A DNA stretch of 6,637 nt, from the IMG/VR virus record IMGVR_UViG_2690316176_000003; one strand, 5' to 3'. The translations under genes were made by a program, and so were the position numbers. Positions 4,682-5,055 of the stretch are shown here, piece after piece. The stretch is from a virus (taxonomy: Duplodnaviria > Heunggongvirae > Uroviricota > Caudoviricetes). Positions within the stretch are counted from its first letter, which is position 1. Every line of letters begins with the position of its first letter. The notes below the pieces were generated by a model, which was not told where the DNA came from, ran no database searches, and saw only the letters and a program-made list of their open reading frames with translations.

Positions 4682-4720
4682 CTGATGTATGTCTCCGTCA
4701 CCGCCGACAGAAAATGAAAG

Positions 4721-4761
4721 TAAAGAAAAACAAAAAAGCCGCCAGTGTCACCCACTGACGG
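4721..4761 (-). terminator. tR'-like intrinsic terminator upstream of the holin gene (minus strand)
   Basis: Minus-strand hairpin GCCGTCAGTG-GGTGA-CACTGGCGGC (9 of 10 bp paired) followed by TTTTTTGTTTTTC, about 40 nt upstream of the holin start. This is analogous in position to lambda tR' between pR' and S. Confidence 0.6.
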
Positions 4762-4854
4762 CCAACGCCGGGAGCCGTGATTATGGCATTCAGGCTCTGC
4801 TAAAAATGCCAGATAACATTCCGGCCCCGTTACTTTATTCGTACCCCTTATAAT

Positions 4855-5045
4855 GGGGTGTTAGCCAGCCAGACCCGGCATGATTACTGCCCCCAGTCGT
4901 CCATGATCCGGGGGGTGATGTCACCGGGTCTGGTGGGGCGCTGGTAACCGCTAATAGGGGTCAGGTCAGGCACTTTTGCCGGGACCGTCTGTAACGTGGA
5001 TGCCGGTACCTGCTCCCCGTGGTTATCTGGTTAACCCATATACAA
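4855..5045 (+). ncRNA. Candidate IS110-family bridge (guide) RNA in the recombinase 5' leader
   Basis: A consensus TATAAT at 4848..4853 is followed by ~200 nt of GC-rich non-coding sequence with several imperfect stem-loops (e.g. CCCGGCATGA...TCATGATCCGGG at 4872..4915) ending at the recombinase SD. Position and length fit the bridge-RNA arrangement reported for IS621-type elements. No convincing -35 was found. Confidence 0.2.
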
Positions 5046-5055
5046 GGGAGACAGA

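Follow-up and report, generated by a model that had tools for sequence, protein, structure and literature searches.

The 6,637-nucleotide stretch studied here (IMG/VR virus record IMGVR_UViG_2690316176_000003, below called the window) carries, next to a phage lysis cassette on the minus strand, an oppositely oriented insertion sequence (IS) of the IS110 group, ISEc20 (4829..6280, plus strand; 1452 bp including one copy of a CC core). Our analysis indicates that the interval 4682-5055 is very probably the junction between the leader of a class II holin gene, S, of the type present in phage 434, H-19B and Shiga toxin 1 (Stx1) phages, and the left end (LE) of ISEc20, and that the cassette was orphaned by truncation at an IS3-family element. 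The limits of ISEc20 were established from the empty site and from about 35 other copies. All parts of this arrangement are of known kinds: a catalogued IS110-group element with a predicted bridge RNA, a known type of phage late region, and an IS3-bracketed mosaic as found on virulence plasmids.

The phage/ISEc20 junction and the break from the late promoter

A first-pass annotation of this DNA had described a switch from phage sequence to an oppositely oriented, GC-rich IS110 element, and this was borne out: the plus-strand gene at 5056-6252 encodes a 398-aa DEDD recombinase with matches to PF01548 (DEDD_Tnp_IS110; 1.9e-48, residues 14-168) and PF02371 (Transposase_20; 6.9e-22, residues 277-358), and the GC content of ISEc20 is 57% vs 44% in the remaining window. 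The boundary, which had been drawn at about 4860, has to be moved: homology to phages ends at 4826-4828, and comparison with empty sites agrees in placing the phage/IS junction at 4828/4829. Native phage origin of the segment 4860-5055 was considered and rejected; it consists of ISEc20 DNA, which is present within ISEc20 in 1439 E. coli genomes and absent from the phage homologues.

The empty site is provided by E. coli B19374, which carries the same block without ISEc20; the window without 4829-6280 equals the IS-free sequence of this strain exactly (...CATTCCGGCCCCCCCAGACTCAGG...). The empty target is the tract GGCCCCCCCAG (C7), located 147 bp upstream of S. Insertion lengthened the sequence by 1450 bp plus CC and left C4 on the left (4825..4828, plus strand) and C6 on the right (the other half of the target, 6279/6281-6283), which fits a repeated CC core. 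Apart from this repeated core dinucleotide, whose position is ambiguous in the C-run, ISEc20 shows no conventional target-site duplication. Because ISEc20 splits the tract, a scan of the occupied window for runs of at least seven C returned none.

Beyond ISEc20 the phage DNA resumes and extends from 6281 to 6522 (242 bp, minus strand) as the intergenic region between a nanS-p-type esterase gene and S, collinear with intact Stx1 phages, H-19B and 434; it is cut at 6522, and the homology ends at an IS629-like element of the IS3 family that starts at 6523. From the holin gene through the 147-bp leader with its terminator and on over a further 242 bp, the sequence is collinear with, and 94-97% identical to, the late regions of 434, H-19B and Stx1 phages, whereas these phages go on upstream into esterase or stx genes, tRNAs, the Q gene and the late promoter, and the window stops at the IS3-family element. 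A further difference in phage 434 is an interrupted C tract (CTCCCC) at the insertion point. The IS-free allele is collinear over 99% of its length (94-96% identity) with the Stx1 phages, H-19B and 434, up to the IS3-family end, and plasmid CP146553.1, which matches the module except for an IS-sized gap (77% coverage), represents another IS-free module. Because the IS-free alleles are truncated at the same IS3-family point as the window, the real break from Q and the late promoter pR' is the IS629-like element at 6523 and not ISEc20, to which the first-pass annotation had attributed it. As a lesson for annotation, an IS that lies beside a gene cluster need not be the breakpoint. The same annotation had correctly reported that neither Q nor pR' occurs in the window; in addition, the records of the E. 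coli ML35 chromosome and of plasmid NZ_CP027549.1 show no annotated Q gene over the 15 kb and the 12 kb, respectively, to each side of the block.

ISEc20 occupies the same site in prophages of E. coli O145:H28 RM12581 and Z1323HEC0422, where the late region runs on past the IS through the esterase gene, TerB and tRNAs and reaches, about 4-7 kb from the IS, a Q-family gene that is 6-9 kb upstream of S. Since polymerase modified by Q, as known from lambda biology, passes terminators over long distances, a 1.45-kb insertion at this site would not by itself be expected to abolish the expression of the lysis genes.

The relative timing of the two IS events bears on how the locus was assembled. We favour insertion of ISEc20 into a module already captured by the IS3-family elements; a point that weighs against this order is that ISEc20 may have inserted before the capture as well as after it. 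One could thus suppose that ISEc20 was already present in the S leader of the donor prophage, and that the IS-free modules (B19374, CP146553.1) arose by later, precise excision of the IS110 type. Occupation of the same site in the O145:H28 and Z1323HEC0422 prophages agrees with such a history, as does the ability of IS110-family excision to restore the target (PMC11208160). The flanks of the window (CCGGCCCC/CCCCCAGACTC), however, are those of the IS-free module and unlike those of the prophage copies (CCGGCTCCC/CCCCCTGATTC), which favours the later insertion without being decisive, and we regard insertion before capture as possible but rather unlikely. The differing flanking single-nucleotide polymorphisms are consistent with repeated site-specific hits, and shared ancestry followed by divergence could also account for them. 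The junction of the window was found in only 10 records.

The RM12581 prophage shows additional rearrangements: in its copy of ISEc20, 31 bp at the 3' end of the transposase gene are tandemly duplicated, and the right-end tip with its flank, approximately 80 bp, is duplicated as well. This prophage also has an IS3-family element, inserted about 90 bp closer to S than that of the window and oriented the opposite way. The intergenic region upstream of S seems to collect insertions.

The holin leader, its terminator and the lysis genes

The native phage leader of S (4682..4828, minus strand), delimited by RNA folding, a terminator scan and phage homology, comprises the 147 nt between the IS and the holin start. 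It folds far better than shuffled sequences (z = -3.64) and forms three hairpins, at about 4784-4811 (GGCAUU...AAUGCC), 4737-4763 (the terminator) and 4692-4713; phage 434, H-19B and many Stx1 phages have the same leader with its hairpins, at 94-97% identity. The terminator scan identified, on the minus strand just upstream of the holin gene, an intrinsic terminator with an 11-bp stem (4763..4737, 7 GC pairs), a 5-nt loop and a following TTTTTTGTTTT, with the T-run reaching about 4726, and the same hairpin is present in the minimum free energy fold of the leader. The first-pass annotation was therefore right in reporting a terminator near 4721..4761, which is real and strong, and wrong in likening it to tR' of lambda. 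It had also noted the GGCATT...AATGCC inverted repeat, which is indeed present and whose true extent is about 4784-4811; the resemblance of this stem-loop region to lambda tR' came down to a chance 8-mer, AGAGCCTG (lambda 44750). This 8-mer is the sole link between the leader and lambda tR', and one such match is expected by chance at these sequence sizes. A blastn comparison (word size 7) of the leader with lambda 43800-45600, which covers Q, pR', tR' and S, gave no significant alignment (best E 0.24).

Lambda tR' is the terminator of the 6S late leader RNA, situated about 200 nt downstream of pR' and next to Q. Both it and the terminator of the window are intrinsic terminators in a late transcription unit that are passed by Q-modified polymerase, and both lie near the AGAGCCTG 8-mer; lambda's, however, sits beside Q, whereas that of the window stands directly before S and has no significant sequence similarity to it. 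The same position is seen in the relatives. The phage 434 record annotates the hairpin as "terminator", immediately 5' of the holin ribosome-binding site, and there a 1.85-kb esterase gene and further genes separate it from the early region; in H-19B, stx1A and stx1B separate S from Q, which is located 4.5 kb further upstream. We therefore rejected the tR' identity: the hairpin adjoins S, kilobases away from Q in intact relatives, and has no homology to lambda tR'. Judged by its place and conservation, the hairpin with its T-run is an internal late-operon terminator, which we take as a normal feature before S in phages of this type; a terminator in this position should accordingly be annotated as an ordinary internal element of the late operon.

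On the minus strand, the Shine-Dalgarno sequence of the holin gene is covered by the 9-bp hairpin at 4692-4713 (ACGGAGACA arm). This hairpin, which is conserved in phages 434 and H-19B, recalls structures that control translation ahead of other holin genes.

The cassette contains holin, endolysin and nested spanin genes in this order (PF04971, PF00959, PF03245, PF06085), all on the minus strand: the class II (phage 21-type) holin gene S (4475..4681; 8.8e-33), a YdfR/DUF1327 gene between holin and endolysin (4126..4470; PF07041, 1.7e-46), the phage lysozyme gene (3458..4075; annotated as partial by PGAP), the i-spanin gene Rz (2584..3051; 4.5e-45) and, embedded in it, the o-spanin gene Rz1 (2646-2831; 4.1e-19). 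The lysis open reading frames (ORFs) had been called intact, which holds for the holin, YdfR, Rz and Rz1 and does not hold for the endolysin. The 177-aa body of the lysozyme is identical (100%, full length) to that of an O145:H28 prophage; nucleotide alignment revealed that its stop codon TAA is changed to CAA in the window (region 3458-3545) and in B19374, which adds a C-terminal tail of 28 aa.

Because there is no late promoter in cis, promoter-like matches occur at the level of shuffled sequences (2 found vs a shuffle mean of 1.6, i.e. no excess) and a strong terminator precedes S, the lysis cassette is most likely silent, and expression of the holin, endolysin and spanin genes as a late operon is unlikely. 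Against this stands a weak promoter-like match on the minus strand (6501..6473), which could give some transcription toward S. Together with the intact ORFs of the holin, YdfR, Rz and Rz1, it is what speaks for an orphan cassette that is still expressed and functional, either from a cryptic promoter in 6281-6522 or by read-out from a flanking IS. Such a transcript, however, would have to cross 1.45 kb of antisense IS and then the terminator at 4737-4763 without modification by Q, promoter matches do not exceed those in the shuffles, and the endolysin carries the 28-aa read-through tail, so that continued function seems improbable to us.

ISEc20, its predicted bridge RNA and its choice of targets

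ISEc20 has a long LE of 227 nt (4829-5055) and a short right end (RE) of 28 nt (6253-6280, plus strand), without terminal inverted repeats; the RE contains TTGACA (6258-6263) and the donor tip AATAGGGGCAC. Seven orthologues were collected at the DNA level (from Burkholderia, Ralstonia, Duganella, Trinickia, Paraburkholderia and two metagenomes). All of them start with GTTACT directly after a C-run, end with TAGGG(G/A)CAC directly before a C-run, and have TTGAC(A/G) 15-16 nt from the right tip. The LE of ISEc20 folds with z = -2.95, and a bridge RNA is predicted at 4843..5017 (plus strand) from this fold and from the comparison of eight orthologous left ends. Its predicted parts are a 5' stem-loop (4843-4859), the stems of a target loop (4864-4878/4924-4939), target guides around 4886-4896 (ACUGCCCCCAG) and 4907-4916 (UCCGGGGGGU), and donor guides at 4952-4961 (UAAUAGGGGU) and 4991-4999 (GUAACGUGG).

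In the alignment of the eight distinct left ends the mean column identity is 85%, and they share a common fold consisting of the 5' stem-loop and two long stems with internal loops. The consensus fold has 59 pairs, 12 of them with compensatory double changes; 97.7% of cells are paired, compared with 34-48% if the partners are slid by 1-3 columns, and none of 500 shuffles matched the observed pairing or covariation score. The donor guide UAAUAGGGGU agrees in sense with the right tip TTAATAGGGGCAC, and the second donor guide, GUAACG(U)GG, is antisense to CC+GTTAC. In the Duganella-type elements (two loci) GGGG is replaced by GGGA in both the donor guide and the RE tip. The target guides (...GCCCCCAG..., with GCCCCC, and ...CCGGGGGG...) are invariant in all eight left ends. 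A scan of the whole window against Rfam (E <= 1) gave no match, so that the RNA assignment rests on comparative analysis.

The element resembles IS621, the bridge RNA of which has been described in terms of left and right target guides (LTG, RTG) and left and right donor guides (LDG, RDG), with left guides that read as the top strand and right guides that are antisense (PMC11208160). Shared features are a recombinase with DEDD and Tnp_20 domains, a long LE and a short RE, the lack of terminal inverted repeats, a repeated 2-nt core, an LE fold made up of a 5' stem-loop with a target and a donor loop, the same strand senses of the guides, and a -35-like hexamer in the RE. The differences are that the core of ISEc20 is CC (ambiguous in the C-run) instead of CT, that its target is poly-C and not a sequence of the repetitive extragenic palindromic (REP) type, that its target guides are mutually complementary, and that its left donor guide stops before the core. 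The supplement of Durrant et al. (PMC11208160), which clusters ISEc20 with ISSfl4, lists ISEc20/ISSfl4 and ISBma3 as IS110-group elements with a predicted bridge RNA in the LE; this catalogue entry is all we found on the targeting of ISEc20 or ISBma3, the main texts containing nothing specific. With its recombinase domains, its long LE and short RE, its structured LE RNA and the matches of its predicted donor and target guides, ISEc20 qualifies as a member of the IS110 group.

About 35 distinct ISEc20 sites, drawn from E. coli loci, viral contigs and species-representative genomes, were compared for their targets. The left flank always ends with CC, usually CCCC and often after G, and most right flanks start with CCCC or CCCCC; the same poly-C pattern is present at 18 sites of the orthologues. 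In lambdoid prophages, ISEc20 was also found in a C tract of the large terminase gene and in one that separates TerB from a tRNA gene. By analogy with IS621, we propose that the LE of ISEc20 encodes a bridge RNA in which a target loop and a donor loop follow a 5' stem-loop. Its target guides would be a C-run and a G-run, so that only a poly-C tract would satisfy both, and its donor guides would match the right tip (AATAGGGG) and the left tip (GTTAC) of the element. The C7 tract GGCCCCCCCAG, 147 bp ahead of S, would then be the place where the RNA-guided DEDD recombinase integrated the circular form of the IS, with duplication of the CC core. The IS3-family truncation would have left the lysis genes without a late promoter and with the terminator kept before S, the insertion of ISEc20 being incidental to this. 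The locus may thus be regarded as a clean natural case of an IS110-group element that landed where its predicted bridge RNA points, in a C tract, and its matched empty and independently occupied sites could be used in studies of ISEc20 targeting.

Several observations weigh against this model. The C-run and G-run guides (4889-4894 and 4909-4914) pair with each other in the predicted fold, in a helix that is invariant and for which covariation is uninformative; the donor guide ends 2-3 nt before the CC core, unlike in IS621; the homopolymer allows more than one crossover point and more than one register of the target guides; and there is no convincing -10 element at 17-18 nt (GTTACT) from the conserved TTGACA that would complete a promoter at the circle junction. 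One may accordingly ask whether 4829-5055 is only the 5' untranslated and promoter region of the transposase gene, the poly-C preference being a property of the protein. The Rfam result and the invariance of the target guides, owing to which covariation between guide and target cannot be shown, both fit this explanation. It leaves unaccounted for, however, the conserved three-part structure with compensatory changes, the covariation of the donor guide with the RE tip, the IS621-like strand sense of both half-site guides, and the bridge RNA predicted for this cluster by Durrant et al. (PMC11208160), and we judge it very improbable compared with a bridge RNA encoded in the LE.

The nearest relatives of the ISEc20 recombinase outside the enterobacteria are Burkholderia proteins of the ISBma3 type, at about 80% amino acid identity. 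Because of its high GC content and the ISBma3-type relatives in Burkholderia, Ralstonia and Duganella, ISEc20 is suggested to have been acquired from beta-proteobacteria. ISBma3 (Burkholderia) and ISSfl4 (Shigella) agree with it in LE architecture and guides, have the same left tip (GTTACT) and right tip (TAGGGGCAC), and are likewise flanked by poly-C; the elements differ in the three bases 5' of the C-run guide (ACU, CCC or GUU), in stems with compensatory changes, and in their hosts, Enterobacteriaceae as opposed to beta-proteobacteria. Among 5426 complete E. coli genomes, 1439 contain the ISEc20 left end, in 2345 places.

At six ISEc20 loci (L005, L006/L012, L023, L031 and L047) the RE tip ...AATAGGGGCAC is followed by GTTAC or GTTAT, without a C-run; this sequence matches the first 5 nt of the LE. 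At the mdtA locus (L006), the two flanks of the IS are about 580 bp apart in IS-free E. coli. A junction of this type has the appearance of a deletion beside the IS with its end at a pseudo-LE site; the right donor guide may have directed it. We tentatively consider, as a possibility that we would not rate as likely, that the ISEc20/ISBma3 clade is a distinct bridge-RNA variant, in which the right donor guide (GUAAC) may drive recombination of the RE with pseudo-LE GTTAC sites, and for which poly-C tracts in late regions are recurrent landing pads. If so, the mutual complementarity of the guides may keep the target loop closed until a poly-C tract is met, recombination with pseudo-LE sites would yield IS-adjacent deletions (six junctions, one checked at mdtA), and landing in the poly-C tracts of lambdoid late regions would help to degrade or domesticate prophages. 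The self-complementary homopolymer guides of the ISEc20 clade and its RE junctions at GTTAC pseudo-sites are the only parts of the locus that would perhaps repay further work.

Beside a truncated Rz gene, a solo fragment of the ISEc20 left end (61-66 nt) was seen repeatedly, together with the adjoining C-run. In E. coli E597 (locus L076, 1501-1566) such a fragment is cut by an IS3-family element, which identifies it as an IS remnant.

The IS3-family bracket and the plasmid-type setting of the module

The full 6637-bp window is matched at 99.9% by the chromosome of E. coli ML35 and at 99.7% by four E. coli plasmids of 82-101 kb. In ML35 the neighbours of the block are traJ, traM, psiA, ssb, parB and effector genes, and in plasmid NZ_CP027549.1 they are tra and rep (RepA) genes, relE/phd and genes of a type II secretion system (T2SS). 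The block is thus a phage remnant with effector genes in DNA of the F-type plasmid kind and not a prophage. The first-pass annotation had concluded that the prophage is probably lysis-defective; the part of this conclusion that stands is a cassette without Q or pR' in cis, and the part that falls is the prophage, the surroundings consisting of tra, rep, psi and ssb plasmid genes. That the IS110 insertion itself separated a prophage lysis cassette from Q and pR' and so produced a lysis-defective prophage is hardly credible: ISEc20 is the first foreign DNA upstream of S and the window has neither Q nor pR', but the phage sequence continues in register past the IS (6281-6522), IS-free alleles are cut at the same IS3-family junction, the setting is plasmid-type, and true prophages with the same insertion keep Q upstream. 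For phage biology the locus carries little weight, being a dead phage fragment on plasmid-type DNA, and no conclusion about a lysis-defective prophage is warranted.

The remnant (6.4 kb; EspS, NleH', PerC, Rz/Rz1, lysozyme, YdfR, S) is bracketed by inverted IS3-family copies. On the left, 1..118 (minus strand) is the end of an IS629-like element, annotated by PGAP as an IS3 family transposase in ML35, and on the right the start of the second IS629-like copy (TGAACCGCCCC...) occupies 6523..6637 (plus strand), as identified from the inverted repeat and from annotation; positions 1-118 and 6520-6637 form a 118-nt inverted repeat (99% complementary), and in ML35 the two copies are similar over the full 1310 bp. 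Within the bracket, the RefSeq annotation of identical DNA places, on the minus strand, the EspS effector gene at 150-1025, an NleH pseudogene at about 1298-1730 and the gene for the PerC regulator at 1807-2121 (PF06069, 3.8e-44); collinearity with prophages begins at about 1730. Modules on the virulence plasmids of enterohaemorrhagic and enteropathogenic E. coli (EHEC/EPEC) are bracketed by IS629-type elements in a similar way: two inverted 1310-bp copies flank effector and phage cargo, and the module occurs in different outer contexts. In the module of the window, by contrast, a search in ML35 for a target-site duplication at its outer boundaries, which would have been a sign of composite transposition, found none. 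The inverted repeat runs 3 nt past the canonical TGAACC tip (TTT/AAA; 116-118 and 6520-6522), which may be due to chance or may be a trace of the assembly of the module.

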